49,605 nucleotides of DNA from Candidatus Zixiibacteriota bacterium (GTDB lineage: Bacteria > Zixibacteria > MSB-5A5 > GN15 > FEB-12), in NCBI GenBank assembly GCA_041742355.1, contig JBGSIV010000062.1:1-49605 (forward strand), read 5' to 3'. Positions 2,900-44,865 of this stretch are shown here, one piece after another. The translations under genes and the position numbers were made by a program. Below the pieces are notes generated by a model. The model saw nothing but the letters and a program-made list of their open reading frames with translations. It did no database searches and had not been told where the DNA came from. Within the stretch, counting starts at the first letter, position 1, and each line of letters starts with the position of its first letter.

Positions 2900-2928
2900 T
2901 CTATGTTGATGTTATGGGGTGCCGATAA
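2900..2928 (+). promoter_or_regulatory. Candidate sigma28 (FliA/SigD-type) promoter TCTA-N17-GCCGATAA upstream of the DUF4388 operon
   Basis: Exact GCCGATAA -10 box at 2921-2928 in an AT-rich intergenic region, oriented toward 3177. The -35 match is weak. Confidence 0.4.
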
Positions 2929-3092
2929 GTACGTTATTGTCCCAATGGGTTGCTCTTTTTCTTACAAACTGCCATACTTCGCAGTTGACACATACTCACA
3001 AAATCGTTATTGTGGACAGGCAGTGACAGTGGCGTGTAACCTTTTACCAACAAGTAGGTTTCGCCGAGCCAACAATAAAAATAGCTAAGAAC

Positions 3093-3110
3093 TTACTGTT
3101 CATACAGTAA
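3093..3110. promoter_or_regulatory. Perfect inverted repeat TTACTGT-tcat-ACAGTAA, candidate operator
   Basis: 7-bp arms with a 4-nt spacer, about 65 nt upstream of the 3177 start. ACTGTTC also occurs as a direct repeat (3095, 3110). Confidence 0.4.
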
Positions 3111-3176
3111 CTGTTCGGCTGCGGAATCCCGGTCCGTGACCGGTGACTCTGGCAGATAAAACTTCGGGGAGCACGA

Positions 3177-4043
3177 ATGGATCTTGACCTGCAGGGAAAC
3201 ATCGAGCGTTTTACCCTTCCGGAAATTCTGCAGCTCATCGCCGCAGGACGCAAGTCAGGAACGCTCGGCATTCAAAAAGACGACTCCATCGTCATGGTGT
3301 ACTTCCGGGAGGGTATCATTATCTACGGCTACGGGCCGCGCCAGACCTACCATCTCGGCCAACTCCTCAAGGAACGCGGCACCATCACTGCCGAGCAGCT
3401 TGAGGAAGCGGTTCGCATCCAGGCCAAAACCGACAACAGCCGACGCCTCGGTGAGATCCTCGTCAACCGCGGTTTCATCGACCGCGCGGAACTGCAGGAT
3501 GTTATCCGCGACCAGGTGGAGAGCCTCCTGTACTCGCTTCTGATCTGGACCAGCGGTTCGTTCAAATTCTACGAAGACCAGTTCCCGACCGAAGAAGAGA
3601 TTGTCGTCGATCTGTCCGTCGAGAATGTTATCCTCGAGGGGCTCCGGCGCATGGACGAGATGAACATGGTGCGTGAGACGCTGCCGGACCTCGACGCGGT
3701 GTACACCATTTCGGCTGCACAGAAAGGCCGTACGCGCGATGTCGCCTTGCAGGCCGACGAATGGAACATCATGGCGCTGGTCGACGGCCACCGGACCCTG
3801 ACCGAGGTCTGCAAGCTGGCGCCGCTCAGCCGTGAGGACACGCTGAAAAAGCTCGCCCAGCTCAAACTGGCCGGGCTCATTACCAAGACCGACAAGCCCA
3901 AAGAAAAAGCCGTCGAAACGGGCGATCTTGAGAAGATGGTCAACCGCCTCGCCGGATTGCTCGAAGATTACGTGACCGAGAAGTCCGGCGACCGTGTGGC
4001 CAACCGTCGCATATCCCGCACTTTTCTGGAGCAGGTCGATTGA
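3177..4043 (+). CDS. DUF4388 (PATAN-like) protein with an inserted MshEN-like tandem motif and a C-terminal winged-helix-like segment
   Basis: N-terminus LQGNIERFTLPEILQLIAAGRKSGTLGI...VYFREGII and VENVILEGLRRMDE (DUF4388). HLGQLLKERGTITAEQLEEAVRIQ and RLGEILVNRGFIDRAELQDVIRDQ (MshEN repeats). GGGGAG RBS. Confidence 0.85.
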   Translation: MDLDLQGNIERFTLPEILQLIAAGRKSGTLGIQKDDSIVMVYFREGIIIYGYGPRQTYHLGQLLKERGTITAEQLEEAVRIQAKTDNSRRLGEILVNRGFIDRAELQDVIRDQVESLLYSLLIWTSGSFKFYEDQFPTEEEIVVDLSVENVILEGLRRMDEMNMVRETLPDLDAVYTISAAQKGRTRDVALQADEWNIMALVDGHRTLTEVCKLAPLSREDTLKKLAQLKLAGLITKTDKPKEKAVETGDLEKMVNRLAGLLEDYVTEKSGDRVANRRISRTFLEQVD

Positions 4044-4750: not shown

Positions 4751-4973
4751 GCCCGAAGAGAAAGCCTATTGCCAGGCGCTCCTCGCTCTGAAGCGGAAAG
4801 ACTACGTAGGAGCCATGCGCTACTTTGACCAGGCGGCTCCCGGTTTTGCCGATAGCAAGGAATTCAACCTCTATCGGGAAACCACGCGCCTGTTACTTGT
4901 TGTTAAAGACAAGTTGGCGGAGTTGGCAAATGAGGATAGAATCGACATAGAGGAGGCCACGACCAATGGCTAA
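4743..4973 (+). CDS. Small hypothetical protein with a single TPR-like helix pair
   Basis: YCQALLALKRKDYVGAMRYFDQA; GGAG RBS; overlaps both neighbours by 8 nt. Confidence 0.65.
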   Translation: MLRPEEKAYCQALLALKRKDYVGAMRYFDQAAPGFADSKEFNLYRETTRLLLVVKDKLAELANEDRIDIEEATTNG

Positions 4974-5151
4974 AAGACAGAGCTTCAGTGACAAGGCGAA
5001 CAAGAAATCGCATCAGTCAATCTGCCCGGTGTGCGAGCAGCCGAGACAGTTTGTCAAGCACGTCAAGGCGGTCAAGAGCGGTAACGGTTGGAAATTCCGC
5101 GCCCAGAACGTCGGCGTGTGCAAATGCAACGAAAAGGAAGTCTACGCGTAA
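4966..5151 (+). CDS. Small basic Cys4 protein resembling DUF4295 / ribosomal protein bL38
   Basis: MAKRQSF...CPVC...FVKHVKAVKSGNGWKF...CKC; strong AGGAGG RBS; Lys-rich; followed by a terminator. Family match is by eye. Confidence 0.6.
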   Translation: MAKRQSFSDKANKKSHQSICPVCEQPRQFVKHVKAVKSGNGWKFRAQNVGVCKCNEKEVYA

Positions 5152-5173
5152 GTAGCGAATAGACGACTCTGCA

Positions 5174-5202: not shown

Positions 5203-5245
5203 GTATGTGAACCGCCGCTTACTTGCGAAATGCCTGAGGGTCTCA

Positions 5246-13982: not shown

Positions 13983-15047
13983 TCAGCAAATGCGCGGCAG
14001 TTGTTCGCCCACCGGCATGTCGATAATCCGCTCGGCACCCAGCCGGGTGCGCAGCGTGACTGTACCGATGCGGTCGGAATGTACTTCGCCGATCAGCGCC
14101 GCCTGGTTTCCGAGCGGATGATTGCGTATCACCGTCAGGGCCCGTTCGGCTGCTGCCGCCGAAACGACCGCGATTAGTTTCCCCTCGTTGGCGACATAGA
14201 GCGGATCGAGACCGAGCAACTCACACGCTCCGGCCACCGGGGGATCGATCGGCAGGCTGTCCTCGAACAGGCGGATGCCGACATCGGACGCCGCCGCAAA
14301 CTCATTGAGCACCGCCGCCACCCCGCCCCGGGTGGGGTCACGCATGGCGTGAATCTCCCCGCCGATTGTGGCAATCAACTCGGCCACGAGGCTGTTGAGC
14401 GATGCCGTGTCGCTGGCAATCGAGGTTTCGAACGCCAGCCCCTCGCGTTTGGAAAGCACCGCCATACCGTGGTTACCTATCGCGCCGTTGATGAGGATCC
14501 TATCCCCCGGCTGGAGATTGTCGACTCCGATTCGATAGTTGTGTTCGATTACGCCGATTCCGGCGGTATTGATAAAGAGCTTATCCCCTTTTCCCCTGTT
14601 TACCACTTTCGTATCGCCGGTGACAATTTGTACGCCTGCCGCTACCGCCGCCCGCTGCATCGACTGGACGATCTTTTCAAGATCCTCCAGCGGCAACCCT
14701 TCCTCGATTATAAATCCTGCGCTCAAATACAGCGGCCTCGCGCCGTTCATGCACACATCGTTAACTGTTCCGTTCACGGCCAGATCGCCGATATCCCCGC
14801 CGGGGAAGAAGAGCGGGTCGACTACGAACGAGTCGGTCGAGAAAGTCAACCGCTGGCCGTTAATCTCGAGCGTGGCCTGGTCATCCCGGCGTCGAAGGAT
14901 TGGGTTATCGAATGCTTCGATAAACAACCGCCCGATCAGGTCGTTCATCAGCTTGCCGCCGGAGCCGTGCGAGAGCTGGATTGTCGAGTGTGCCGTGATC
15001 GGCAGGGGGCAGGCGGGGAATTCGTCGGGGTTGATCCGGTCGGTCAT
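13983..15047 (-). CDS. hypE: Hydrogenase maturation protein HypE
   Basis: HGSGG, STDSFVV, GDTKVV, MRDPTRGG, ANEGK and C-terminal LPRIC. Confidence 0.97.
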   Translation of the reverse strand: MTDRINPDEFPACPLPITAHSTIQLSHGSGGKLMNDLIGRLFIEAFDNPILRRRDDQATLEINGQRLTFSTDSFVVDPLFFPGGDIGDLAVNGTVNDVCMNGARPLYLSAGFIIEEGLPLEDLEKIVQSMQRAAVAAGVQIVTGDTKVVNRGKGDKLFINTAGIGVIEHNYRIGVDNLQPGDRILINGAIGNHGMAVLSKREGLAFETSIASDTASLNSLVAELIATIGGEIHAMRDPTRGGVAAVLNEFAAASDVGIRLFEDSLPIDPPVAGACELLGLDPLYVANEGKLIAVVSAAAAERALTVIRNHPLGNQAALIGEVHSDRIGTVTLRTRLGAERIIDMPVGEQLPRIC

Positions 15048-15055
15048 GGCTCGCC

Positions 15056-16153
15056 TCACTTCTTGACAGGCACACGGTGATATTTGTAGTAGGCGGCGCA
15101 GGCGCCCTCGGTGGAGACCATGGTCGCGCCCAGCGGGTTCTGCGGGGTGCAGCGCGTTCCGAACATCGGGCAGTCAGTCGGCTTCTTCAGCCCTTGCAAG
15201 ACCTGTCCGCTGATGCATTCTTTCGGCTCGGCAACCTGGATTTCCTCTACGCCGAAAAGTCGCTCCGCATCGAACGCGGCGTACTCCGGGCGCAGCCGCA
15301 GGCCGCTCTGTGGGATAGTACCGATTCCACGCCACTTGCGATCGGAGACCTCGTACACACTGTCCACCAGTTCACGGGCGTGCACATTGCCAAACTGCTG
15401 CACTGCCCGTTCGTAGCGGTTTTCAACACACCCCTCGCCCGTCTCAAGCTGTCTTACTACGGCCAGCACGCCGCTCAAAATATCGAGCGGCTCGAATCCG
15501 GTAACCACTACCGGCACATGGTATTTCTCGGCGATGGGACGGTACTCGTCCCAGCCCATGACCGCGCAAACATGCCCGGCCGCGAGGTACGCCTGCACCC
15601 GATTCTGCGGCGAGTCCAACAGCGCCATCATCGCCGGCGGCACGAGCACGTGGGATACGAGCACAGAGAAATTTGGCAGCCCTTCATTTTTCGCCTGACG
15701 GACCGCGATTGCCGTTGCCGGTGTGGTCGTTTCGAATCCGACCGCGAAGAAAACCACCTGGCGATCGGGATTCTCACGCGCCATCTTTACTGCATCGAGG
15801 GGAGAGTAGACAAAGCGCACATCCCCGCCCTCGGATTTCACCGTGAACAGGTCCTTCTTCGACCCCGGCACCCGGAGCATATCGCCGAACGAGGTGAAGA
15901 TCACCCCCGGCCGCGCGGCAATCGCCACCGCTTTGTCGATCAACTCCAGCGGGGTCACGCACACCGGACACCCCGGGCCGTGCACCAGTTCGATCTGCTT
16001 TGGCAGGAGTTGGTCGAGGCCGTTGCGGATGATCGAGTGCGTCTGCCCCCCGCAGATCTCCATGATCACCCACGGACGGCTCACCGTCCGCTCGATCTCC
16101 GCGAGCACTGCTTTCGCCCGCGCCGGATCGCGGAATTCATCGAGAAACTTCAC
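15056..16153 (-). CDS. hypD: Hydrogenase maturation protein HypD
   Basis: [30 protein letters not shown] and C-terminal Fe-S cysteines. Confidence 0.98.
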
Positions 16154-16446
16154 GCCCCCTGATTCTCCTCTCCGGCATCTTTCAGCGGAAACCCGAAGGG
16201 GTCAAGGCCCTCTTCGGCATTCGCCGCTGCGATTTCGTCCCAAAGCTCCAGTGTTTTGCGGGCTTCCTCTTCGTCGACCACATTCAGGGCGAAACCGGCG
16301 TGCACGAGCACATACTGCCCGACCTGCACCTCCGGCACCGACACGAGGCAGGCTGTCTGCACGGTGCCGGCGTAGTCGATCCGGCCCATTTTCAGGCCGC
16401 CTTCGTCAAATATCTCAATCACTCTTCCCGGTATCGCCAGGCACAT
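16150..16446 (-). CDS. hypC: Hydrogenase maturation chaperone HypC
   Basis: MCLAIPG N-terminus and [18 protein letters not shown]. Confidence 0.96.
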
Positions 16447-16457
16447 ACTGCACTCCT

Positions 16458-18761
16458 TCAAAATCCTCTGTGACGGCTCACGGCGTCGGCAATTACCGCC
16501 TGCCCGAGCGCCAGACCGCCGTCGTTGGTCGGCACCTCGCTGTGGGTCAGCACGCGGAAGCCATCTTCGGTCAACCGCCGCACCATGTACTCGAAAAATA
16601 ACGCATTCTGGTATACGCCGCCACTCAATGCCGCGGTCCCGATTCCGGTGGTGATTCGGGCCGAGTGCGCCGCCGCGACAAACAACTCCGCCAGCGCGGT
16701 GTGGAACCGCAGCGCCGACTGCTCGACCGGCTCACCGGAGCGTATCCGGCGGACCATCTCACGGACCAGCGGCGCGAAATTGATCGGGCCGCCCGATTCG
16801 GGAATCGGTATCGCCTCGCCATGCGACAGTGTCCATCCGGCCTGAGTTGCCGCCATCTCCAGCGCAATTGCGGCTTGCGCCTCGTAGTTACTCTCGGTGC
16901 ACAACCCGATCAGGGCGGCCATGCCGTCGAACAACCGTCCGCAGCTGGAGGTCATCGGGCTGTTGAGCCCTCGCTCGATCATCAGCAAGACGGTATCGGC
17001 CTGCAGTTTCGGTATCCTATCGAACAGCGGCAGTTCAAAATGGCGGGCATCGGCGCCGTAGGCGCACCGAAGGTAACTGAGCGCCATTCGCCAGGGCTGT
17101 TGGATCGCGGCCGTACCGCCCGGCATTGCCACCGGTTCCAGCCAGGCGTACCTATTGAACCCGGCGGCATCGCCGATGAGTACCTCACCCCCCCAGATGG
17201 TGCCGTCGGTGCCGTAGCCGGTGCCGTCGAGGATAATCCCGATCGTCGGTTCGGTCACCGCGTTTTCAGTCATCACCGCGACCTGGTGAGCGTGATGGTG
17301 CTGCACCTCGATCACCGGACGTTTCGTCTGCGCTTTTGCCGATTTGGTCGACAGGTATTCGGGGTGCATGTCGCAGGCGATCAGCTCCGGTTCGATCTCG
17401 AGAACATTCTCAAGGTGATTTATGGCGTGTTCGAAGAAGCCGAGGGCGGCCGGATTGTCAAGATCCCCAATATGCTGACTCAGGAAGGCCTTGTCGCCGC
17501 GGCAGAGCGCCACGGTGTTCTTCAACTCGCCGCCGACTGCGAGGACATTTTTCGCCAGCGCCTGCGGCAAGTACACCGGCCGCGGTACAAAGCCGCGCGC
17601 TCGGCGCAGCACCCGCGGAGCGCCGACCAGATGCCGCATGATCGAATCATCACACCGCTGGAGAATCTCCCGATCGTGCAGCAGGAACAGATCGGCTATC
17701 CCGCCCAACCGTTCGAGCGCTTCGTCATTGTCGATCGCGATCGGTTCCTCGGAGAGATTCCCGCTGGTCATCACCAGCACATCGACCGGCCCCCGCAGGA
17801 GCAGATGGTGGACGGGGGTGTAGGGGAGCATGAACCCGTAGTACCGGTTGTCGTACACCACCGAAGGTGCGATTCCTGTTGTTCCGGTGCGTCGTCGCAA
17901 CAGCACAATCGGGCGAATGACGTCGAGCAGGAGCTTCTCTTCTTCGGGCGTAACCTCGCCGTACCGCCGGATCGTCTCGATCCTGTCGGCCATCATCGCG
18001 AGGGGTTTCTCCTGACGGTGCTTGCGTTCGCGCAGGCGCCGCACGGCCGCTTCATTCGCAGCATCGACCGCGAGGTGGAATCCGCCAAGGCCGCGTACGG
18101 CGAGTATTTTGCCCGCCTGCAGAGCGTCGATTGCCCAGCCGATCGGGTCTTCGACCTGCACTTCCGAGATGCCGTCATGCGCGATCAGGCGCGGACCGCA
18201 CACGGGGCAGGCTACCGGCTGAGCATGAAACCGACGGTCCCTCGGATCGTCGTACTCTTCCTCGCACTCCACGCACATGGGAAAGACCTTCATCGAGGTC
18301 AGCGGCCGGTCGTAGGGAATCCCCTCGACAATCGTGAACCGCGGGCCGCAGTTGGTGCAGTTGATGAAGGAGTAGCGGTAGCGGCGGTTCTTCGGGTCAT
18401 TCATCTCATGGAGGCACTCATGGCAAACCGCAATATCGGGGGGGATTAGTGTGTGCGCCGTTCCCCGGTGGTCGCTCGCCTCGATGTGAAACTCCCGGTC
18501 TCCACGTGCGGGGAGATCCTCGACCGTGCAGGTATCGATCCGTGCCAGGGGCGGAGCGTCATTCTCCAATTGATCGCGGAAGCGATCCAGAGCAGCCGGG
18601 AAACCTTCGACTTCGATCCGAACGCCGTGCGCGTCGTTGGTGATAAAACCCGTAAGCGACAACTCGGTGGCGAGACGGTAGACAAACGGACGGAACCCCA
18701 CCCCTTGCACGATCCCGTTGACCGTGATCCGCTGCCGCTGTCTATCGCCGTTGCTTTGCAT
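16458..18761 (-). CDS. hypF: Carbamoyltransferase HypF
   Basis: GIVQGVGFRPF acylphosphatase domain, CxxC zinc fingers (CTNCGPR, CPVCGP), QHHHAH, DGTGYGTDG and NDGGLALGQ. Confidence 0.98.
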   Translation of the reverse strand: MQSNGDRQRQRITVNGIVQGVGFRPFVYRLATELSLTGFITNDAHGVRIEVEGFPAALDRFRDQLENDAPPLARIDTCTVEDLPARGDREFHIEASDHRGTAHTLIPPDIAVCHECLHEMNDPKNRRYRYSFINCTNCGPRFTIVEGIPYDRPLTSMKVFPMCVECEEEYDDPRDRRFHAQPVACPVCGPRLIAHDGISEVQVEDPIGWAIDALQAGKILAVRGLGGFHLAVDAANEAAVRRLRERKHRQEKPLAMMADRIETIRRYGEVTPEEEKLLLDVIRPIVLLRRRTGTTGIAPSVVYDNRYYGFMLPYTPVHHLLLRGPVDVLVMTSGNLSEEPIAIDNDEALERLGGIADLFLLHDREILQRCDDSIMRHLVGAPRVLRRARGFVPRPVYLPQALAKNVLAVGGELKNTVALCRGDKAFLSQHIGDLDNPAALGFFEHAINHLENVLEIEPELIACDMHPEYLSTKSAKAQTKRPVIEVQHHHAHQVAVMTENAVTEPTIGIILDGTGYGTDGTIWGGEVLIGDAAGFNRYAWLEPVAMPGGTAAIQQPWRMALSYLRCAYGADARHFELPLFDRIPKLQADTVLLMIERGLNSPMTSSCGRLFDGMAALIGLCTESNYEAQAAIALEMAATQAGWTLSHGEAIPIPESGGPINFAPLVREMVRRIRSGEPVEQSALRFHTALAELFVAAAHSARITTGIGTAALSGGVYQNALFFEYMVRRLTEDGFRVLTHSEVPTNDGGLALGQAVIADAVSRHRGF

Positions 18762-18806
18762 ACGCCGTGCTTCACTCTTTCCTGAGACTGCATGCGCTCG
18801 AGCGCG

Positions 18807-23019: not shown

Positions 23020-23103
<84 letters not shown>

Positions 23104-24568: not shown

Positions 24569-24591
24569 TTACTCAAGGAATAAGGGAGACT

Positions 24592-25212
<621 letters not shown>

Positions 25213-25273
25213 GCCTGAGGAGTCGGGCAGGGGCCGCCGCCGACGGCCTCACCGATTCGGGAGACAATAGGAC

Positions 25274-26551
<1,278 letters not shown>

Positions 26552-26637: not shown

Positions 26638-26669
26638 TCAAGTATCCCGGCTGCTCCAACCGATACTAG
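26638..26669 (+). promoter_or_regulatory. Sigma28-like promoter TCAA-N17-ACCGATAC-TAG
   Basis: Shares CGATACTAG and upstream TCAA with the sites at 39784 and 44865; 21 nt before the lipoprotein ATG. Confidence 0.55.
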
Positions 26670-26690: not shown

Positions 26691-27242
26691 ATGAGATTAC
26701 TCCCGCTTCTTGCCGCTGTTACGGTGCTGGCTGTTAGCCTCGCCTGCAGCGAGGCTCAGAACCAGACCAGCGTCCCTGTGTCCACCCAGCCCGCCGTCGT
26801 CGACACTCTCCGCGTGATCTTCGACGAACTGCAGCAGGCGGTGCTCCTGGGCCAGCCGGAACGGTTCCGCAACCTCCTCGACCCAGCCCAGGCCGACACG
26901 TTGCGCAAGCTGATTCGTAAGCACGGCTACCTGTCACTTCGGTCGTACATCGAGCGGCAGTTCGCCAATTGGCCCAACCTCGACACGCTTGAGCTGTATC
27001 AGATCAAGCAGTCGGGCGACTACGTGCGCCTGGCCTACAAGGGCCCGGGTTCCCACTTCGGCCACCGCCAGCCGTGGGTGCGCTACACGTTCCTGCTGTT
27101 CAAGCATCACCGGGAATCGTGGCGCCTCGCCGGGGTTAGCAGCATTGAGGCCGAGCAGTTCGACCCGTATGGCTACGGTTACGAACTGTCATACCACGAA
27201 ACCGATCTTCCGCCAAGGCTCCGTTTCCCGCGTTTATTCTGA
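26691..27242 (+). CDS. Putative lipoprotein of unknown function
   Basis: Signal peptide II with lipobox SLAC (MRLLPLLAAVTVLAVSLAC); GGGAGG RBS. Confidence 0.75.
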   Translation: MRLLPLLAAVTVLAVSLACSEAQNQTSVPVSTQPAVVDTLRVIFDELQQAVLLGQPERFRNLLDPAQADTLRKLIRKHGYLSLRSYIERQFANWPNLDTLELYQIKQSGDYVRLAYKGPGSHFGHRQPWVRYTFLLFKHHRESWRLAGVSSIEAEQFDPYGYGYELSYHETDLPPRLRFPRLF

Positions 27243-27383: not shown

Positions 27384-29852
<2,469 letters not shown>

Positions 29853-29927
29853 CGCGAACCTTCCTTGCGTCTATTGCAACTCTTTCTTACGCGGCTAAAG
29901 TGCACCAGTAAATACACCTTTCTGCGG

Positions 29928-30986
29928 CTAAGTGTTCCGCAGTTTCTCCCGGACCATCTGCGCTCTGACGAAATCTCGCCGGTTGTCGTCCATCTCGGAT
30001 CCATAAAACCGCTGGAGATGGGCCGGCTGCGACAGCAGCAGCATTTCGTTGATCTGCGCCACCGACAGAAAATCAATAATTCCCATCGCCTGGCCCAGAC
30101 GGACCGCCGACAGGAGGTTCATGACCTCCTCGGAGGTCAGCACCCGGGCGTGCAGGAGGATCCCGTACGCCCGCCAGATCTTGTCTTCGATCATCTCCGA
30201 GGCCTCGTCCACCAGCCGTTGACGGGCCGCGGCATCCTGCTCGATTCTCCCGCGCGTCCCGCGAACGATCTGCGTCAGGATGTCATCTTCCGTAATCCCC
30301 AGCGTGTTCTGGTTAGACACTTGGAACAGGTTCCCCAGAACATCCGAACCCTCGCCGTAGAAGCCCCGCACAATCAGGCCGCTTGTGGTGATCTGACGGA
30401 TCACCCGGTCGATATCGCGGGTCAGCACCAGTCCCGGCAGGTGGATCAGAACCGAGGCCCGCATTCCGGTACCCGCATTGGTCGGGCAAGCCGTCAGAAA
30501 GCCGAAATCGGGATCGTAGTCGTACTCGAGGTGCCGTCCCACCTCCGTGTCATACTGCTTGGCGAGGTCATATGCCCCGCGCGGATCGAGCCCCGATGTG
30601 AGTGCCTGAATGCGCAGGTGATCCTCTTCGTTCACCATTATGGACACCCGTTCCTGCGATCCGATAAACAGCGCCTTGGGCAGTTCACCGGTCAGAAAGC
30701 CCGGGGAAATGAGGTGCCGCTCAACCAGAAAATCCCGATCGAGGGGGGTGATGTCGGTGCCTTTGACGTACCGTCCGGCCGCCATGACCGATGATCGCGT
30801 GACGGTCGAGTCGACATAGTGGACGATGCGGTGCGCCGTTTCGCTATCGGCCGATGGCGGGTACTTGCAGCCGGCGATATTGCGCGCCAGCCGAACCCGG
30901 CTGGACATCACCACCGAGGCTTCCTCACCTTTTCCGGAAAGCCAGGTCGCGGGCATCTTGGCCATATCTTCAAACATCGTGTTCAA
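29928..30986 (-). CDS. mcsB: Protein arginine kinase McsB
   Basis: SSRVRLARN, LVERHLIS, NEEDHLRIQ, LTACPTNAGTGMRAS and RDFVRA. Confidence 0.96.
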   Translation of the reverse strand: MNTMFEDMAKMPATWLSGKGEEASVVMSSRVRLARNIAGCKYPPSADSETAHRIVHYVDSTVTRSSVMAAGRYVKGTDITPLDRDFLVERHLISPGFLTGELPKALFIGSQERVSIMVNEEDHLRIQALTSGLDPRGAYDLAKQYDTEVGRHLEYDYDPDFGFLTACPTNAGTGMRASVLIHLPGLVLTRDIDRVIRQITTSGLIVRGFYGEGSDVLGNLFQVSNQNTLGITEDDILTQIVRGTRGRIEQDAAARQRLVDEASEMIEDKIWRAYGILLHARVLTSEEVMNLLSAVRLGQAMGIIDFLSVAQINEMLLLSQPAHLQRFYGSEMDDNRRDFVRAQMVREKLRNT

Positions 30987-31004
30987 CGCATCCCTCTCAA
31001 TGGC

Positions 31005-31541
31005 TTAGCTTCGGGCTGTCGACGAGGATCCCTCGCGGATCGTCTTCAGCTTATCACGGAGTTCGGCAGCCCGCTCAAAATCTTCACCCTCGATTGCTTT
31101 GGCCAGCTCGCCCTCGAGACGCTCCTCTTCCTTCACGGGAATAGCCTCGTCATCCTGCCCCGGCAGCAAGAGCGGAATCGGGCGCTGGCCGCGGTGCAGC
31201 GACGCACCGTGGATCTTGCGCATGATCGGCTCCAGCCGGCCCCGGAACGTCTTGTAGCAGTCCCCGCAGCCGAACCGCCCCTGCCGGGTGAACATCGTAA
31301 AAGTCAGACCGCAGGTGGGACAGCTGATCTGCTCGCCGGTCTCGACGGGCAGAGGGTTGTGGGGCGACGCGGCCAGCCCGGTGAGAATGTCCGCCAGGGG
31401 AAACGGCACGTTCTCCAGCGGTGAGTGAAAACCACGCGCTGCCGCACACTGCTTGCAGAGGTTGAGCGTCGTCTTCTCGTTGTTGATGATCTGCGTCAGG
31501 TGAACCTGCGCCTCATTCTTTTTACAGTCCTGGCAAAGCAT
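31005..31541 (-). CDS. mcsA: McsB activator McsA
   Basis: Four CxxC motifs (CQDC, CKQC, CPTC, CGDC) and C-terminal UVR domain EDFERAAELRD. Alternative GTG start at 31559 overlaps the lolD stop. Confidence 0.95.
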   Translation of the reverse strand: MLCQDCKKNEAQVHLTQIINNEKTTLNLCKQCAAARGFHSPLENVPFPLADILTGLAASPHNPLPVETGEQISCPTCGLTFTMFTRQGRFGCGDCYKTFRGRLEPIMRKIHGASLHRGQRPIPLLLPGQDDEAIPVKEEERLEGELAKAIEGEDFERAAELRDKLKTIREGSSSTARS

Positions 31542-38223: not shown

Positions 38224-38841
38224 ATGGAACCCATGACAGACGGTAAAGCGAAAACAGGCGACGAGAAGAAGAGAGAACTCGAAAAGCGGAAAGCATTCGA
38301 GAGAGAAGCGCTGCCGCACATGGACGCTCTCTACCGCACCGCGCTTCGGATGACCAAGAACAGCAACGACGCCGAAGATCTGGTGCAAGAGGCGTACGTC
38401 AAGGCTTACCGCTTCTGGGATCGGTTCGAACCAGGGTCGAATTGTCGGGCATGGTTGTTCAAGATCATGACCAACATCTTCATCAACGATTACCGGTCCA
38501 AATCCCGTTCGCCGATGTCGGTCAATGTCGATGAGATCGACGACAGTTTCCTCTACGGGCAGCTGGCCGCAACCGCGCCCAGCGACAACCCGGAAAAGGA
38601 GCTGTTTGCGAAGATATTCGACGACGATGTCAAGCGGGCAATCGAAGAGCTGCCGGAGGATTTCAGACTCGTGGTTGTACTGTCTTTCCTTGAAGGATTT
38701 TCTTACCAGGAAATCGCCGACATCGCCGATCTTCAGTTGGGAACAGTAAAATCGCGCCTGCATCGGGGGAGAAAGCTGTTGCAGAAAGCGCTCTATGACT
38801 ATGCGATCAAAAACGGCTACATCAAGGACACGGCGAAATGA
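38224..38841 (+). CDS. ECF sigma factor (SigH/SigR-like)
   Basis: FEREALPHMDALYRTALRMT, DAEDLVQE, AWLFKIMTNIFINDYR and SYQEIA...GTVKSRLHRGR. Confidence 0.95.
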   Translation: MEPMTDGKAKTGDEKKRELEKRKAFEREALPHMDALYRTALRMTKNSNDAEDLVQEAYVKAYRFWDRFEPGSNCRAWLFKIMTNIFINDYRSKSRSPMSVNVDEIDDSFLYGQLAATAPSDNPEKELFAKIFDDDVKRAIEELPEDFRLVVVLSFLEGFSYQEIADIADLQLGTVKSRLHRGRKLLQKALYDYAIKNGYIKDTAK

Positions 38842-39641
38842 ATTGTCAGGAAGCTCTAAACCTGTTGTACGACATTATCGACAAAGAAGCCTCTGAAATC
38901 GATGTCAAGCAGGTGGAAGAACATCTCGAAAAGTGCAGCGACTGCTTTGAAAAGTACCGCCTCGAAGCCGAAATCCAGAACTTTCTTTCCGAGAAGTTCC
39001 GGAAAGCGAACGGCGAGGCGGCCCGCGATGCACTGAAAGCCAGGATCCTCGATCAACTCGACGAAGTCGATCACACGGGCACAGCGGCCAAAGGCCGGGA
39101 GAACCAGCGCCCTTTTAGGTTTGCCGCCACCGTCATGGTGGCGGCTGCTTCACTGGTCGTTCTCATCGGAGCCGGGGTTTACGGCGCGCGCCTCTACACG
39201 CACCAGACCCGGTTCGTCCCGCTGGAAAAATCCCACTGGTCTATGACCGCCTCGCTATCCGACGCAACCCTCCAGACCGCCGCCGACCGGCTTGTCGCCG
39301 AGGCCCGGGCCCGCTACGGTTACGATCTCCGGCCCATTATCGGCAATCATCGCCTCGTTTCCGCGCGCCTCGACACGGTGCTCGGAACCGAGCTGCTGCA
39401 TTACATCTATCTCGTCGAGGGGAGCAGTGTCTCGGTTTTCCTCGCGCCCGCCGCCTTCTTCGAGCAGGTCAACAACGACCGGCTTGAGGAGGTCGTACAC
39501 AACCAAATTCACTTCTTTGACCACGACTGCCGCGGCTGCCGGGTGGTTCTCCACCAGGTGGGTCGGGCTGTCGTCATCACGGCGTCGAGCGACCGCTCCG
39601 TCAACCTGCTCGAGTTTGTGCCTGGCCGCACGATCATCTGA
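38838..39641 (+). CDS. Zinc-binding (ZAS, zf-HC2) transmembrane anti-sigma factor
   Basis: MNC...HLEKCSDC (HxxxCxxC), one transmembrane segment (VMVAAASLVVLIGAGV), ATGA overlap with the sigma gene. Confidence 0.9.
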   Translation: MNCQEALNLLYDIIDKEASEIDVKQVEEHLEKCSDCFEKYRLEAEIQNFLSEKFRKANGEAARDALKARILDQLDEVDHTGTAAKGRENQRPFRFAATVMVAAASLVVLIGAGVYGARLYTHQTRFVPLEKSHWSMTASLSDATLQTAADRLVAEARARYGYDLRPIIGNHRLVSARLDTVLGTELLHYIYLVEGSSVSVFLAPAAFFEQVNNDRLEEVVHNQIHFFDHDCRGCRVVLHQVGRAVVITASSDRSVNLLEFVPGRTII

Positions 39642-39783: not shown

Positions 39784-39814
39784 TCAATAAGTTCACGCTT
39801 ACAGCCGATACTAG
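39784..39814 (+). promoter_or_regulatory. Sigma28-like promoter TCAA-N16-GCCGATAC-TAG
   Basis: Close match to the TAAA-N15/16-GCCGATAA consensus; ATG lies 7 nt after the -10 box. Confidence 0.6.
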
Positions 39815-39818
39815 GAGC

Positions 39819-40859
39819 ATGAAGTCGGCTGTCGCAACTACCGTCACACAACTGCTGCTGGGTGCCGCTGCAATTCTTGCCCTGGCAGGCGCCGTCGGCG
39901 CAGCCCAGGCGCAGCCAGACTCGGCTCAGATCGTACGAATCCTCGCCCTGCAGGATCAGTTGTACCGTGACCGTTTTGTGGCCGCGGAATCCCTCGCGGC
40001 CGACTTCACCACCGCATACCCCGATCATGCGCTCGGTTACCTGTTCAAAGCGATCACGCTGGTGAGCGCGATGTACGATGCCGAGGAAAGCTCGCGCGCC
40101 GATCACTTCCATGCCCTGCTTGATTCGGCTCAAGCTCTGGCGATTGATGCTGTGAAAACTGCCTCCGGAACCGAACGCGCCTGGGCCTTTCTTGTGCTCG
40201 GGCACGTTGAATCCTACCGCGCGGTGTGGGAAGTACGATTCGGTTCAAGATTGTCTGCGGCGCGCAAGGGGCGCGCCGGGGCGGCTCACTATCGTCGCGG
40301 CCTTGCTGCCGACAGCACCCTCGGCGACCTCTACTTCGGACTCGGCCTCTACCACTACTGGAAATCGGCCAAGGCGGGGGTGTTGCGGTGGATCGGTCTG
40401 GTTGCCGACGACAAGGAAAGAGGCTACGCGCAGTTGCAGCGAGCCGCAGCTCACTCGACCATTTCGCAACAGGCCGCCGGATCCGCCCTCATCTGGGTCC
40501 ACTTCGACCGCAACGAATGGGATTCCGCGATCATACTTTGCAACGAGTTGCTGGAGCGCTACCCTGAGAACCACAGCTTTCTGTGGCCGCTGGCGAAAGC
40601 GCATGCGGGTGCCGAACGTTTTGCTGAGGCGGCCGCGATCTATGCCCGACTGCGTTCCCACTACGCCGACAATCCCGGCAACTACCACAACCTGATCGAG
40701 TGCGACTACCATCTTGCCCGGTGCTACGATCGACTCGATCGCCCCGAGGCACTCGCCCGGGCGACCGACCAGGCTGCTGGGTACCTCGATCACCTGTCCA
40801 CGGATATTCGTGACCGCCAGAGTGAACGCATCCGCTACCTTAGCGAGGCGGAGGACTGA
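39819..40859 (+). CDS. Exported TPR-repeat protein
   Basis: Signal peptide ending AAQA; TPR-like repeats DLYFGLGLYHY, WPLAKAHAGAERFAEAAAIY and YHLARCYDRL. Confidence 0.78.
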   Translation: MKSAVATTVTQLLLGAAAILALAGAVGAAQAQPDSAQIVRILALQDQLYRDRFVAAESLAADFTTAYPDHALGYLFKAITLVSAMYDAEESSRADHFHALLDSAQALAIDAVKTASGTERAWAFLVLGHVESYRAVWEVRFGSRLSAARKGRAGAAHYRRGLAADSTLGDLYFGLGLYHYWKSAKAGVLRWIGLVADDKERGYAQLQRAAAHSTISQQAAGSALIWVHFDRNEWDSAIILCNELLERYPENHSFLWPLAKAHAGAERFAEAAAIYARLRSHYADNPGNYHNLIECDYHLARCYDRLDRPEALARATDQAAGYLDHLSTDIRDRQSERIRYLSEAED

Positions 40860-41506: not shown

Positions 41507-43714
41507 CTAAAACAGCTTTCCCGCGTGCAGCCGCTCGTCGAGCAGCCGGCAGCCTTCCATCAAAATAGACTCATTCGACTCGGTCGTGTTGGGCGCCGGC
41601 AAGCCGTCACGCGTGATCGGCTCTACGGTCCAGTGGCCATCGGTCCAGCCAATCGTCTCGTATACTGCCTCCGCCCCTGTGAGACCTTTGTACTCGGCGA
41701 ATATGATTGCGCCGTGATCGAGGTAGAGCGTCAACCGTTCGTCGGTACCCTGCCCGTTGGCGCCGGTGACGCCATAAGTGATCCGTCCGGGAGGCAGATC
41801 GCCCTTCTTGCCATTGCCCTTTGAGGCATTGCCGGACACAACCGTGATACGGGCGGTTTTGCGGCTCGGCCCGAGCGCCTGAAGCAAGTCGATCAGGTTC
41901 ATGTCGGCAAGGCGGCCGCTGGCGCCCGCCCGGCGATCTTCAGCGTCGCGCGCCTGCTGCCTGGCCTGGATCATCACCTGGATCTTCTGCATCTTCACCA
42001 CCAGCAGGTCGAGCGAGCCGTCGTTCGGCAGGACATCCTCGATCCCCTTCTCCAGCAGGCTCGTTACCGCCGATATCGTGGCGGTGTCGACCAACACAAA
42101 CGTCGGGGTGTGCTGGAGGTCGACATCGCGCTCGTGCAGGCGTTCGACAAATTGCGTGACTTTGCCGGCATCGCCGGGAATAGTCAGTACCACCATGTCC
42201 GGCCGGCTGCGCTTGAAGAGATCGACAAACGACTCGAAGTCCCCCGGTGTGATTGTGCGAAACCCCTCATTCTTCAGGCGCAGGTGAATCGGCGTGATCG
42301 ACGTCGGGCCGTCGGCCAGCAGCATAACCTGGGCTGCCTGCATCGAGGTCTGCTGGGCCAGCATTTCCTCCTGCAGCATGGCGACAAAAGCTTCGACCAC
42401 CTCGGCCATGAAAAGGCGGCCGGTGAGGTCGCGAAATTTCTTCTTGATAGCGTCAAACTTGTCCAGCAGCAGTCGTTCCGTGGAGGCGACATTTTCGCAG
42501 TAGATGTCGATGATCGTCAGGATATTGCCGCCGAGCGCCTCGATCGGAAGACGTTTCGTGAACTTGCCACCGAGATCCTTGTACATCGAGCGGAGCATTT
42601 CCACCACCACCGGCGGGTAGTTGAGCGACTGCAGCAGCCGGGTCGACAGCTTGATCGTAGCCCGATAGTCGCGGCCGGACGACGGAGCGTAGTGGAACTT
42701 CGCGATATCGTGGAGGTACGCCGCGCTGACTATCTGGAGCCGATCCTTGTCGGGTAGTCCGAGCTTGCGGCAAAGACGGTCGGCGTAGTGGCCTACCCGG
42801 CCGGAGTGATTCTCCGGCTGGCGCACGGCCGAGGACATCATCGTCGTAAACAGGTCGAGATTCTTGACCAGCAACTCGCTCTCGGTGGCGAACGCATCCT
42901 CGCTCAGCAGGAGTTTCGCGGCCGACTCGTAGTATCGCACGCGGGTGCGCGGCGAGATCTTACGCAGTCGGTCGATCAGATCGATATAGTCGCCGGGGAC
43001 CGTGTCCTTAATAAAGACGGTCCGGAATCGGCGGTTGCCGATCATTTCGATTGCGTCGTCGGCCGAATCGCTGATGACGACATCGAGGTCATCCCGTTCA
43101 AAAATTGATTGCAGCAGCGGGGCGCAATATTCTTCGTCGGTGACCAGCAGGACCGCCTCCCGCGGCGGGGCATCGGACTGGTCCGATGCTGGATCGATCG
43201 GGAGCTTGCCGGTTTCGGTCGCTTCATCGGGAATTTGCAGCGACAGGCTTTCGTCGAGCGAAATGTCCTCGCCGAGGTAGTACCGGGACAGGGCGACATC
43301 GAGGGGCAGTTCGGCGGCGACATAGAGCTTCACCTTGCGGCCGCGCGCCACGAACTTGAGTTCGTTGACGACCTCAGGATCGGTGGGATTTTCGCAGGCG
43401 ACCTTGAGCGTGTTGGACGGCGGGTCGAAGTCGAACGGCAGAAGCTTGCGGGCCAGCGCAATCCGTTTGGGGATCATCCCGATGACGACCTCCGAGATCT
43501 CCAGTCTCGACAGCACTACTCCCTCGCAGCCGAACTGAATCGTCAGCGCTTTGACCAGCCCCGCCTCGTCGATATAGCGGTGGTAGAGCAGTTGCGAGCC
43601 AACTTTGCCGCCATGGGCCTTCTGGCGCATGAGGGCTTCGCGGATCTGGACCTCGGAAACGAGGCCTTCGGCGATGAGGATTTCATCGAGGCGTTTGCGG
43701 TGTCCTGTGGTCAT
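41507..43714 (-). CDS. Multidomain signalling protein: MshEN/T2SSE_N - pseudo-REC - degenerate HD-GYP-like - pseudo-REC - DUF4388
   Basis: RLDEILIAEGLVSEVQIREALMRQ...KVGSQLL...LVKALTIQ and LKVACENP; VLLVTDE receiver fold; HSGRV...AAYLHDIAK; RPDMVVLT receiver fold; SGRLADMNLIDLLQAL...SILMEGCRLLDE. Confidence 0.82.
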   Translation of the reverse strand: MTTGHRKRLDEILIAEGLVSEVQIREALMRQKAHGGKVGSQLLYHRYIDEAGLVKALTIQFGCEGVVLSRLEISEVVIGMIPKRIALARKLLPFDFDPPSNTLKVACENPTDPEVVNELKFVARGRKVKLYVAAELPLDVALSRYYLGEDISLDESLSLQIPDEATETGKLPIDPASDQSDAPPREAVLLVTDEEYCAPLLQSIFERDDLDVVISDSADDAIEMIGNRRFRTVFIKDTVPGDYIDLIDRLRKISPRTRVRYYESAAKLLLSEDAFATESELLVKNLDLFTTMMSSAVRQPENHSGRVGHYADRLCRKLGLPDKDRLQIVSAAYLHDIAKFHYAPSSGRDYRATIKLSTRLLQSLNYPPVVVEMLRSMYKDLGGKFTKRLPIEALGGNILTIIDIYCENVASTERLLLDKFDAIKKKFRDLTGRLFMAEVVEAFVAMLQEEMLAQQTSMQAAQVMLLADGPTSITPIHLRLKNEGFRTITPGDFESFVDLFKRSRPDMVVLTIPGDAGKVTQFVERLHERDVDLQHTPTFVLVDTATISAVTSLLEKGIEDVLPNDGSLDLLVVKMQKIQVMIQARQQARDAEDRRAGASGRLADMNLIDLLQALGPSRKTARITVVSGNASKGNGKKGDLPPGRITYGVTGANGQGTDERLTLYLDHGAIIFAEYKGLTGAEAVYETIGWTDGHWTVEPITRDGLPAPNTTESNESILMEGCRLLDERLHAGKLF

Positions 43715-44796
43715 GATGCTCCGGCCGTTTCGTGTACGTGGTGTTCAGTCAGGGTGAGAAAGGGCGCAGGGTCGACCGCGACCCGGACCGCTTCTTCCGG
43801 TTTTATGATGCCGGCGTCCACGAGCGCTTTGAGGTGGTTGTCCAGAAGGCGCATCCCCTGCTTCCGGCTGGACTGAATGATATTCGGCACCTGATGGGTC
43901 TTCCCCTCGCGGATGAGATTTTTGACTGAAGCCGTGCGCGTGAGCAACTCGTAAGCAAGCACTCGCCCTGCCCCGTTGGCCTTGGTCAGCAGGTGCTGGG
44001 AAACGACCCCGGCCAGCGTGTCGGCGAGCATCACCCGGATTTGCTGCTGCTGGTTGGGGGGGAAGACATCGACCACCCGATCGATCGTAGCCGCAGCGCT
44101 GGTGGTATGCAAGGTGCCGAGCACCAGCAGGCCTGTTTCGGCAGCGGTCACTGCCTGGGCAATCGTCTCGGTGTCCCGCAGTTCCCCGACCATGATGACG
44201 TCGGGATCCTCGCGCAACGCGGCCCGGACGCCCGCCGCGAACGACTGGACATGCAGCCCGATCTGGCGCTGGGTGATCAGCGAGTTCTTGTTTACGTGGA
44301 TGTACTCAATCGGATCCTCGAGTGTCACGATGTGGCGAGAGAAATTCGTGTTGATGTAGTCGAGCATGGCCGCCAGCGTCGTGGTCTTGCCGGAGTTAGT
44401 GGGGCCGGTGACCAGGACCAGCCCGGCCCGGTGCTCGGCCAGGCGGGCGACAGTCTCCGCGAATCCCAGGGATTCAAGGCTCGGCGGGGAGTCGGGAATG
44501 AGACGTATCGACGCCGCGATACCCGATTGCATGCGGTAGATGTTAATGCGAAACCGGGCGCCGGCAGGAATGCCGTAAGCGGCATCGATATCCCCCTCCC
44601 GTTCAAACGCGCGGATCTGCTCATCCGAGAGGATTTCGTAGATCAGTCCCCTGATCGTCTCACTGGAGAGGCGCTTGTGGCTGGTCTTCTCCAGCTTGCC
44701 GGCCACACGGACCACAGGGACCGATCCGGCGGCGAGGTGGAGGTCCGAGGCGTTGGCGTCGCGGACAATCTGCAGGAGCTGGTCGATTTTGGCCAT
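43711..44796 (-). CDS. pilT: Type IV pilus retraction ATPase PilT
   Basis: ASDLHL, RFRINIY, GPTNSGKTTT, TLEDPIE, ALREDPDVIMVGELRD, GTLHTTSA and VKNLIRE (AIRNLIRE motif). Confidence 0.95.
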   Translation of the reverse strand: MAKIDQLLQIVRDANASDLHLAAGSVPVVRVAGKLEKTSHKRLSSETIRGLIYEILSDEQIRAFEREGDIDAAYGIPAGARFRINIYRMQSGIAASIRLIPDSPPSLESLGFAETVARLAEHRAGLVLVTGPTNSGKTTTLAAMLDYINTNFSRHIVTLEDPIEYIHVNKNSLITQRQIGLHVQSFAAGVRAALREDPDVIMVGELRDTETIAQAVTAAETGLLVLGTLHTTSAAATIDRVVDVFPPNQQQQIRVMLADTLAGVVSQHLLTKANGAGRVLAYELLTRTASVKNLIREGKTHQVPNIIQSSRKQGMRLLDNHLKALVDAGIIKPEEAVRVAVDPAPFLTLTEHHVHETAGAS

Positions 44797-44835
44797 GTAT
44801 GTCCATCGATGGGTGCACGGTTTCCGCTATCTCTC

Positions 44836-44865
44836 CTAGTATCGTCAGGATTGCCGGACTGTTGA
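44836..44865 (-). promoter_or_regulatory. Sigma28-like promoter TCAA-N15-GACGATAC-TAG upstream of pilT
   Basis: Minus strand reads ttcaacagtccggcaatcctgacgatactaggag, 40 nt before the pilT ATG. Confidence 0.58.

Follow-up and report, generated by a model that had tools for sequence, protein, structure and literature searches.

Three CGATAC sites in the analyzed DNA of a Candidatus Zixiibacteriota bacterium are likely read by the sigma-28 factor FliA as part of a broad regulon, with a predicted core of late flagellar genes, pilus retraction motors, fliA and rpoN-hpf and with a putative sigma-28/sigma-54 circuit. The window, i.e., the whole stretch of 49,605 nucleotides from contig JBGSIV010000062.1, contains the following features:

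2900..2928, plus strand: fourth site, TCTA-N17-GCCGATAA, score 10.9, 248 nt 5' of the ATG at 3177
2985..3013, plus strand: sigma-70-type promoter TTGACA-N17-TATTGT, likely driving the DUF4388 gene
3177..4043, plus strand: DUF4388 protein carrying an MshE-type c-di-GMP motif as an insertion (profile matches), likely sigma-70 driven
26638..26666, plus strand: likely sigma-28 promoter of the lipoprotein gene; -35 TCAA 26638-26641, 17-nt spacer, -10 ACCGATAC 26659-26666
26691..27242, plus strand: predicted lipoprotein, 183 aa, NTF2-like fold (predicted structure and signal-like N-terminus)
38224..39641, plus strand: ECF sigma factor and zinc-binding anti-sigma (Pfam/NCBIfam), conserved upstream neighbours of the TPR gene
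39784..39811, plus strand: likely sigma-28 promoter of the TPR gene; -35 TCAA, 16-nt spacer, -10 GCCGATAC
39819..40859, plus strand: exported TPR protein (Pfam TPR); family also in Ignavibacteriota and Bacteroidota (ESM Atlas neighbours)
41507..43714, minus strand: MshEN-HD-receiver-DUF4388 protein (Pfam), overlapping the pilT stop
43711..44796, minus strand: PilT/PilU-family ATPase, accessory paralogue (TIGR01420, over cut-off)
44839..44865, minus strand: likely sigma-28 promoter of the pilT-MshEN operon; -35 TCAA 44865-44862, 15-nt spacer, -10 GACGATAC 44846-44839

A sequence-only reading had linked four motifs in the window to a sigma-28-controlled pilus regulon. All four motifs sit where it had placed them, including the three TCAA-led ones near start codons, and profile matches verified the PilT-family ATPase, the MshEN/DUF4388 proteins and the TPR protein. 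The 9-mer CGATACTAG occurs at 26661 (+), 39806 (+) and 44836-44844 (-), ending 21, 4 and 39 nt from the ATG codons at 26691, 39819 and 44796; the spacers between TCAA and the -10 octamers ACCGATAC, GCCGATAC and GACGATAC measure 17, 16 and 15 nt. Shuffled sequence contained the 9-mer 0.12 times on average and reached three copies in 0 of 100 shuffles. Genome-wide there are 14 copies, three of them in one window (p ~5e-4, uncorrected for the post hoc choice of window and word). The CTAG tail, regarded before as a signature, is present in just 5 of 119 top sites genome-wide and kept in orthologous upstream regions in 0/17 (pilT), 1/10 (lipoprotein) and 1/29 (TPR) cases; it was rejected as a sub-regulon tag and is incidental, outside the signal. 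Chance matches account for this tail and for the site at 2900. As an explanation of the motif as a whole, chance is barely credible against the shuffles, the spacing, the genome-wide enrichment, the matrix from other genomes and the conservation, which rules it out for the pilT and lipoprotein sites.

The genome encodes one FliA; its gene closes a flhB-flhA-flhF-flhG run, and no other match exceeds the TIGR02479 cut-off. Flagellin is also present. Searches of the window for the FliA and flagellin families, together with the scanned ORFs, bore out the earlier statement that it holds no sigma-28 or flagellar gene. The best solved structure match of FliA is Streptomyces WhiG (PDB 6pfv, E 9e-65). 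Promoter-reading residues in the Pseudomonas sigma-28 structure include R80, R82, L86, R97, S224 and Q228 (PMC12784957, partial text). These six, among them the -35 reader Q228 and the extended -10 reader R97, are identical in the alignment with FliA, and R40, S72, H100 and R101 differ (6/10). Motif, spacing and presence of FliA agree with a sigma-28-type promoter for three of the four sites.

The genome-wide motif matrix was TNAA-N15/16-GCCGATA(A/C), with a spacer of 16 nt in 68% and of 15 nt in 22% of sites. At a score of at least 16 this matrix gave 94 matches in upstream intergenic DNA (204/Mb vs 10-15/Mb elsewhere); wrong spacers gave 10-19 matches and shuffles 2-5 regions. An independent matrix built solely from rpoN and fliA sites of other genomes gave 84 matches at a score of at least 14 (182/Mb vs 12-13/Mb; wrong spacers 15-23) and recovered all three window sites. 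The motif is, as had been anticipated, commoner upstream of genes than elsewhere, and the enrichment is spacing-specific. Roughly 65-120 upstream regions of the genome would be marked by it; about 10-20% of the listed sites are expected to be false judging by wrong-spacer controls, and one (C121) sits within accB, miscalled intergenic. A strict pattern beat its reversed control, which is blind to spacing, in 116 of 121 genomes. One genome of another order (G055) had 30 strict-pattern sites vs 18 reversed, many inside genes or without a clear gene, and had only rpoN and the DUF4388 orthologue in common with the sites found here.

The predicted start position was also inspected. In columns beyond those of the matrix, 60 of 119 sites had a pyrimidine-purine step 7 positions past the octamer (offset 7) vs 19-34 at other offsets, and an in-frame ATG at this offset in 9/178 cases vs 0-4 elsewhere. 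Offset 7 equals +1 when the octamer spans (-15)GCCGATAA(-8) (PMC12784957, partial text). This sequence signature fits a predicted transcript start 8 nt after the octamer.

About 20 further sigma-70-family genes are present in the genome, and the one group-1/3-like sigma besides FliA is a short primary sigma. Reading of the motif by an ECF sigma or by this primary sigma, or an rpoN site that is mainly an ECF promoter with a conserved upstream TGAAC as its -35, is nevertheless very improbable. The motif agrees with the consensus for sigma-28 and lies upstream of flagellin, flgN, motA, cheW and fliA, and the primary sigma has abundant TTGAC-N17-TAnnnT promoters of its own (155 at spacer 17). A second element ending in TGAAC does lie 21-22 nt 5' of the rpoN -35 in 21/29 loci of the order; however, in this genome it is confined to rpoN, and it was not seen in other orders; the CCGATA box is retained there.

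Conservation was scored at a threshold of at least 12 in relatives, which are non-independent samples; orthologue counts for the window sites exclude two loci, L145 (unaligned) and L166 (upstream region too short). The pilT site (predicted +1 near 44831; scores a low 11.5 with the own and 14.0 with the independent matrix) was kept in 16/17 orthologues from three families, mostly 34-49 nt 5' of the start, and each control gave 0/17. At offset 7 the accessory pilT sites showed a purine in 16/16 and a pyrimidine-purine step in 3/16 cases. The gene is one of three pilT-family paralogues in the genome, has orthologues in 18/41 genomes of the order, and is immediately followed by the MshEN-HD-receiver-DUF4388 gene in 17/17 orthologous loci. 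Main pilT orthologues carried the site in 5/5 cases.

The lipoprotein site (scores 18.4 with the own matrix and 13.6 with the matrix from other genomes alone) was retained in 8/10 orthologues, with 0/10 for each control, and its 17-nt spacer belongs to a class that is rare genome-wide. The predicted +1 is A26674 with a T-A step, followed by a 17-nt leader with GGAGG. No Pfam family matched the protein. Its model (pLDDT 75; single-sequence fold poorer, pLDDT 52) had NTF2-like best structural matches (Z 7.7, rmsd 4.4, 109 aligned), and Foldseek returned nothing at E≤0.001 (best E≥0.004). Homologues number 21, every one with a named taxon being from Zixibacteria, and 10 of the 11 orthologues listed share the signal-like N-terminus with a Cys. 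Profile families, fold and co-occurrence with the accessory pilT gave no link to pili; the latter gene was found in 4 of 11 genomes with a strong lipoprotein match, which is about chance given 18/41. The site, stable at family level, would say only "same state", not "same machine".

The TPR site scored 22.8 (own matrix) and 19.4 (independent matrix). It was kept in 2/29 orthologues, both of the same genus (2/3 of that genus), to which it is restricted. The ATG at 39819 coincides with the predicted +1, so the TPR mRNA would be leaderless. The gene is third in an ECF-sigma cluster and occurs in 36/41 genomes of the order; the anti-sigma lies upstream in 23/29 orthologous loci, and the MshEN gene is arranged tail to tail with it in 11/29. 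Profile searches of the protein against pilus families gave no match.

The DUF4388 gene was found in 39/41 genomes of the order. The site at 2900 was rejected as a sigma-28 promoter: within 400 nt upstream a match was found in 3/28 orthologues vs 4/28 on the reverse strand. Kept instead is the sigma-70 pattern, in 28/29 loci including this one and in 0/29 on the reverse strand.

Further targets were sought among 119 sites scoring at least 15, from which 108 first genes went into a Pfam search; left out were rpoN, one duplicate, two genes of the window and seven that scored low or were partial. By hand count, 5 of these genes concern pili, 3 flagella or chemotaxis, 27 signalling or oxygen binding and 45 envelope, metabolic or housekeeping functions; 26 had no Pfam family. 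Genes in units with a site comprised pilins (6/16), pilus ATPases (3/6) and receiver proteins (18/51) vs 245/3371 overall. Late flagellar sites scored 18.4 (flagellin), 21.4 (flgN), 21.4 (cheW) and 14.2 (motA), and were kept in orthologues for flgN (13/18) and motA (14/16). A FlgM-like candidate in the flagellin operon remained below the Pfam cut-off (E 0.012). Chemoreceptor genes carried a site of at least 14 in 0/5 cases, unlike enteric sigma-28 regulons. A fliR-flhB-flhA promoter scoring 15.7 here was rejected, with at least 12 in 1/19 relatives. Likewise aspS was rejected as a core member (1/5 relatives, same genus; sigma-70 pattern 4/5); of the housekeeping candidates aspS, topA, mreB, glnS and PEPCK, this core test covered aspS.

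A pilus-specific regulon with the TPR protein and lipoprotein as pilus components, as the sequence-only reading had it, is quite improbable and largely refuted by this target list. Pilus genes are over-represented, as it had expected, both pilT orthologue sets keep the site, FliA persists where flagellar genes no longer flank fliA, and in Bdellovibrio FliA drives a Tad pilus operon (PMC5430801, partial text). However, pilus genes make up only 5/108 first genes, and no sigma-28 site precedes either of the two major pilin candidates (scores 7.7 and 0.0). The promoter therefore cannot assign the TPR protein or the lipoprotein to pili; the ECF synteny and the 2/29 orthologues of the former and the NTF2-like fold of the latter, together with the chance-level pilT co-occurrence, also argue against it. 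In Zixibacteria, sharing a sigma-28 promoter does not place a gene in pili or flagella.

Outside the window, on another contig, the motif lies 5' of rpoN-hpf. It was found there in 54/59 Zixibacteria from 18 families vs 1/27 other genomes, an outgroup of mostly distant taxa picked up by pilT-related loci. The rpoN site reached 12 in 28/29 genomes of the order and in 26/30 of other orders (controls 0-2); three of the four genomes missing it belong to one family (f7). The predicted start shows a pyrimidine-purine step in 35/54 rpoN sites. The -35 element lies inside the last lptB codons in 13/26 other-order sites (counted by eye) and is therefore partly fixed by coding. The fliA site reached 12 in 17/20 genomes of the order, all but one at exactly 17 nt; fliR, flhA, flhF and flhG gave 0-1 and flhB two real matches. 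In other orders a fliA self-promoter was found in 4/20 genomes. Sigma-54-type sites precede flgB (14/17) and flgF (16/18), with 0 for flgG, fliF and fliI, and in this genome GG-N10-GC precedes two pilins behind a sigma-54 activator. The flagellar-gene counts exclude one flhB row (L286) and three bEBP rows as artefacts.

Motif, spacing, upstream position, conservation and the sigma factor were observed; the circuit that we infer would run as follows. Sigma-28 would raise its own level and that of sigma-54. Together with its activators, sigma-54 would drive the flgB and flgF operons of the hook-basal body and also, in the present genome, both major pilin candidates. Once complete, the basal body would export the FlgM-like anti-sigma, which would free more sigma-28. 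Such a positive feedback loop would move cells into a state of motility or dispersal, with a joint rise of flagella, pili, many receiver proteins and a ribosome hibernation factor. It is predicted to persist even in lineages whose fliA no longer has flagellar neighbours. The regulon core has a fast-turning periphery, to which the TPR gene, aspS and many exported proteins belong. Basal rpoN expression probably also arises by read-through from lptB, so that sigma-28 would boost, not license, sigma-54.

Alternatively, the rpoN site may mainly raise hpf, with sigma-54 set by lptB read-through and no functional loop, which we consider rather unlikely. It is usually the activators that set the limit on sigma-54 activity, which would favour this possibility, as does the arrangement of the locus: hpf lies behind rpoN in 30/30 and 28/30 loci of two locus sets, and a terminator was found after hpf and none between lptB and rpoN. 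However, the promoter stands 5' of rpoN, none was seen in the gap before hpf (thresholds examined in this genome alone), and the site is retained across 18 families. This alternative is compatible with the promoter assignment and lowers the loop claim only.

Textbook flagellar cascades place sigma-54 above sigma-28, and the hierarchies of Vibrio, Pseudomonas and Campylobacter likewise do so. The system described here resembles these hierarchies and that of Legionella (PMC5655016, partial text) in its sigma-54-type sites at hook-basal-body operons, beside which an activator and a kinase are encoded, in its sigma-28 sites before flagellin, flgN-flgK and motAB, and in the FlgM-like gene of the flagellin operon. 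Unlike these four systems, it has a predicted sigma-28 arrow back to rpoN, many non-flagellar targets and chemoreceptor genes without sites. If kept phylum-wide, a sigma-28 promoter before rpoN would give the cascade an arrow running back and make it a feedback switch that couples swimming, twitching and ribosome hibernation.

The published precedent for an expanded FliA regulon is that of Bdellovibrio. In B. bacteriovorus TTAAG-N16-CCGATA precedes 92/140 attack-phase promoters, many of them non-flagellar (PMC3627812, partial text), and the regulon is similar in size to the present one, whose promoters are likewise mostly non-flagellar; there, too, FliA drives a pilus (Tad) operon (PMC5430801, partial text). 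In the present genome, by contrast, the site is found at type IVa motor genes and at rpoN-hpf. In Bdellovibrio rpoN (Bd0843) has reads in both phases (RPKM 169 and 271), pilT is barely expressed (5 and 19; PMC3627812, partial text), and one Bdellovibrionales genome has rpoN without a site. New is the motif before rpoN-hpf and fliA in Zixibacteria; the literature searched, mostly titles and opening parts of abstracts, contained no report of a sigma-28 promoter before rpoN or of Zixibacteria sigma-factor regulons. As in Chlamydia trachomatis with its late sigma-28 and sigma-54 regulons, a developmental switch would involve both alternative sigmas beyond the flagellar genes; the rpoN promoter of that organism is transcribed by the primary sigma and unbound by sigma-28 (PMC12282069, partial text).

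With somewhat less than even confidence we propose that a two-state life cycle in Zixibacteria has sigma-28 as its uppermost switch, made bistable by the loop, and that the link from sigma-28 to sigma-54 predates the flagellum and outlasts it, being retained in lineages that would have lost flagella. Sigma-28 would then drive itself, the pilus motors, the hibernation factor and sigma-54, and sigma-54 would build the basal body and pilin. This provides a concrete life-cycle hypothesis for an uncultured, widespread sediment phylum. A sigma-28-family factor without flagella, as Streptomyces WhiG or FliA of the non-flagellated Legionella oakridgensis (PMC5655016, partial text), appears likely in some Zixibacteria lineages; unlike those systems, the present genome is flagellated. 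Flagellar loss was judged from the genes beside fliA. Additionally, an Rfam scan of the window yielded a single tRNA and nothing else. Flagellin was found in 40/41 genomes of the order and FliA in 120/121 sampled genomes of the phylum, the latter count being only suggestive of an essential fliA.

The 9-mer CGATACTAG was found three times in the window (0.12 copies expected) and 14 times in the whole genome. As the sequence-only reading had claimed, the window copies at 26661, 39806 and 44844 (minus strand) are located near start codons and carry an upstream TCAA; TCAA precedes the -10 octamer at 17, 16 and 15 nt, and an ATG lies 21, 4 or 39 nt downstream, respectively. CTAG did not hold up as a signature of the motif, since of the 119 top sites 5 contain it, with 1.6 expected, and 2 of 56 orthologous regions retain it. 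Three of the 14 genomic copies lie inside an approximately 85-nt, REP-like repeated intergenic element with hairpins (G000:C57:14536-14620; C182:2830).

Upstream regions were defined from our own gene calls. The pattern T[CA]AA-N-.CCGATA peaked upstream of genes at spacers of 15 and 16 nt (12 and 22 sites) as compared to 0-2 sites at other spacers. An EM matrix of the motif, TNAA-N16/15-GCCGATA(A/C), yielded 94 matches scoring at least 16 in upstream intergenic DNA, corresponding to 204/Mb versus 10-15/Mb in other sequence classes; wrong spacers gave 10-19 matches and shuffles 2-5 regions. The proposed preference for DNA upstream of genes was thus confirmed and is spacing-dependent. To avoid circularity, a second, independent matrix was built exclusively from other genomes, with 57 sites that a plain pattern picked out in 79 of their rpoN and fliA loci. 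It gave 84 matches scoring at least 14 (182/Mb upstream versus 12-13/Mb; wrong spacers 15-23), with scores of 13.6, 19.4 and 14.0 for the lipoprotein, TPR and accessory pilT sites and 10.7 for the site at 2900. The excess over controls suggests roughly 65-120 sigma-28 promoters in this genome. Furthermore, a strict pattern exceeded its reversed control, which is weaker than a spacer shift, in 116 of 121 genomes.

A pyrimidine-purine step was observed at offset 7 after the octamer, in columns outside the matrix, at 60 of 119 sites (19-34 at other offsets), and an in-frame ATG at the same offset in 9 of 178 cases (0-4 at others); the TPR gene is among these predicted leaderless genes. In the Pseudomonas fliC promoter, (-15)GCCGATAA(-8) (PMC12784957), offset 7 corresponds to +1. 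The predicted transcript starts in the window are 26674 for the lipoprotein gene, 39819 for the TPR gene and about 44831 for the accessory pilT; before rpoN, the predicted start is located 8 nt past the octamer.

The 4.37-Mb genome (completeness 93.8%; the window is contig C62) encodes a sigma factor of the family presumed by the sequence-only reading, one FliA above the TIGR02479 cut-off, last after fliR-flhB-flhA-flhF-flhG, and also flagellin. Of 41 genomes of the order, 39 have a FliA above the cut-off, and FliA was present in 120 of 121 genomes of a phylum sample. Most of the nearest named homologues of this genome's FliA bear the label Zixibacteria or candidate division GN15, and its best solved-structure matches are WhiG and the sigma-28 factors of E. 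coli and Pseudomonas. Contact residues named in PMC12784957 were mapped onto an alignment with Pseudomonas sigma-28; R80, R82, L86, R97, S224 and Q228 are identical, R40, S72, H100 and R101 different. A FlgM-like gene, matching below the Pfam cut-off, lies within the flagellin operon. At about 285 aa, the apparent primary sigma factor (G000:C272:8257-9111) is short, and so it is in all listed relatives; TTGAC-N17-TAnnnT promoters are nevertheless abundant, with 155 upstream sites.

The sigma-28 site upstream of rpoN, the sigma-54 gene, was conserved across the phylum. In this genome it lies 62 nt ahead of rpoN, in the gap that separates lptB from rpoN-hpf, and scored 21.4; it reached at least 12 in 28 of 29 relatives in the order and in 26 of 30 genomes (14 families) of other orders; reverse-strand and in-gene controls gave 0-2. 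In 13 of the 26 other-order sites the -35 box falls within the last lptB codons. Outgroup rpoN loci (27, from genomes reached via a related-locus search with pilT; 16 with a FliA match) contained one site scoring at least 14, with a Zixibacteria-trained matrix that could miss variants. The genome concerned matches our genome by 70% in pilT and 78% in lptB, as near as Zixibacteria relatives, and we therefore infer that it belongs to Zixibacteria despite its record label; another outgroup genome, whose rpoN is just as similar (56%), lacked the site.

Within the order, 17 of 20 genomes have a sigma-28 site belonging to fliA itself, 17 nt ahead of the fliA start, and neighbouring genes are essentially without such sites; in other orders only 4 of 20 genomes have this self-site. 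Sigma-28 sites precede flgN (13 of 18) and motA (14 of 16). Sigma-54-type sites precede flgB (14 of 17) and flgF (16 of 18), and none were found before flgG, fliF and fliI. Two major pilin candidates of this genome, located behind a sigma-54 activator gene, have GG-N10-GC and lack a sigma-28 site.

Conservation was also determined for the window sites, which lie among the following features.

2900-2928: fourth site, 248 nt upstream of its gene
4966-5151, plus strand: 61-aa basic protein with two Cys pairs, last in the DUF4388 operon, hairpin after it
13983-19827: presumably hydrogenase maturation genes (from translations)
23022-23103: tRNA
23285-26551: genes which we take to be tig-clpP-clpX (from translations)
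27384-31541: genes assumed to be mcsA-mcsB-clpC (from translations)

The tRNA, protease and hydrogenase maturation genes are ordinary context. Family and structure searches with the 61-aa protein gave no convincing match; it may be a small ribosomal-type zinc protein.

The conservation expected from the shared motif was found for the accessory pilT site, scoring at least 12 in 16 of 17 orthologues from three families (controls 0), and for the lipoprotein site (8 of 10), but not for the TPR site (2 of 29, both within the genus) or the site at 2900 (3 of 28, as compared to 4 for the reverse strand). The latter was rejected as a sigma-28 promoter; TTGAC-N16/18-TAnnnT precedes the DUF4388 gene instead in 28 of 29 loci (own copy 2985-3013). 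An MshEN-HD-REC-DUF4388 gene always comes next after the accessory pilT in orthologous loci.

Target classes were counted by hand over 108 first genes with a family scan: 5 pilus, 2 DUF4388, 3 flagellar or chemotaxis, 27 signalling or oxygen-binding, 26 without family and 45 envelope, metabolic or housekeeping genes. Units that carry a site scoring at least 14 comprise 245 of the 3371 genes; against this background they contained 6 of 16 pilins, 3 of 6 pilus ATPases, 2 of 4 DUF4388 genes, 18 of 51 receiver proteins (stand-alone receivers 10 of 15), 3 of 21 sigma-54 activators and none of the 5 chemoreceptor genes. The main pilT site was kept in 5 of 5 genomes, the aspS site in 1 of 5. One ATPase count depends on a site that lies within accB, 270 nt upstream of a third pilT paralogue, which scored 20.3 and was kept at 14 or more in 3 of 5 orthologues (L366, G000:C121:45294-45560); it may be an internal promoter. 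Pilus genes are hence enriched, as a pilus-control regulon would have it, yet they make up only about 5% of the targets, and a common sigma-28 promoter therefore does not assign gene function in this genome. The earlier placement of the TPR protein and the lipoprotein in the pilus system is accordingly not supported. The TPR gene lies downstream of ECF sigma and anti-sigma genes (23 of 29 loci have the anti-sigma gene there), and its family reaches into Ignavibacteriota and Bacteroidota. The lipoprotein probably has an NTF2-like fold (best Z 7.7, a level possible for a common arrangement); its family (26691-27242 and homologues) has a strongly conserved YHETDLPPxLRFPRxF tail beyond this core.

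Motif, spacing, position, conservation and cognate factor are established here. FliA would read the predicted sites and thereby raise its own level and those of the pilus motors, of signalling proteins and of rpoN-hpf; hook-basal-body parts and pilin would be made by sigma-54 together with its activators, and export of the FlgM-like protein would free FliA, closing a positive feedback loop. Pili would form a feed-forward arrangement, the machine directly under sigma-28 and pilin via sigma-54. In biological terms, this is read most simply as a motile or dispersal state in which ribosomes hibernate. It is a fair alternative that the rpoN site serves mainly hpf, the ribosome hibernation factor, with sigma-54 supplied by read-through; the search for terminators found none in the lptB-rpoN interval and one after hpf.

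The regulon itself is of a known kind, and to this extent the shared-motif reading was right, though not in its pilus-specific assignment. In Bdellovibrio, FliA governs the attack phase globally (92 of 140 promoters; PMC3627812) and drives a Tad pilus (PMC5430801). Bdellovibrio differs in that rpoN reads occur in both phases (supplement of PMC3627812), Chlamydia in that sigma-28 does not bind its rpoN (PMC12282069); Legionella has the usual direction of hierarchy (PMC5655016). Literature searches of open-access text revealed no report of a sigma-28 promoter before rpoN; this site across the phylum is what is new here.

Flagellar genes were not always found beside fliA, and one published Zixibacteria genome is reported as non-flagellated (PMC3903129). 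At 12 of 20 other-order fliA loci no flhA match was present in the examined DNA, 3 of these ending at contig ends; genome G055, which shares its genus with one of them, has flagellar genes at that place. In genomes G071, G104 and G056, 2-3 of 49 query genes matched in 55 kb around fliA (csrA, fliW, an HDOD gene, one flgI), as compared to 10-15 within 15-20 kb in G064, G119 and G055. The rpoN site was kept in G071, G072, G078, G089, G042, G105, G091 and G045 and missing in G056. In G078, G104 and G089 (L408-L410), receiver, kinase and sigma-54 activator genes lie almost directly upstream of fliA and the structural genes between are missing; the cluster appears collapsed.

Additionally, a 109-aa gene without Pfam family lies between flgC and fliE (L364, G000:C207:16166-16495), in a weak sigma-28-independent context. 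A second element, TGT-N2-AAT-N3-TGAAC, single-copy in this genome, lies some 57-68 nt ahead of the predicted rpoN start (L181, G000:C214). In 21 of the order's 29 loci, its TGAAC begins 21-22 nt upstream of the -35 box for sigma-28. The element is a candidate operator or activator site, with its centre near -60.
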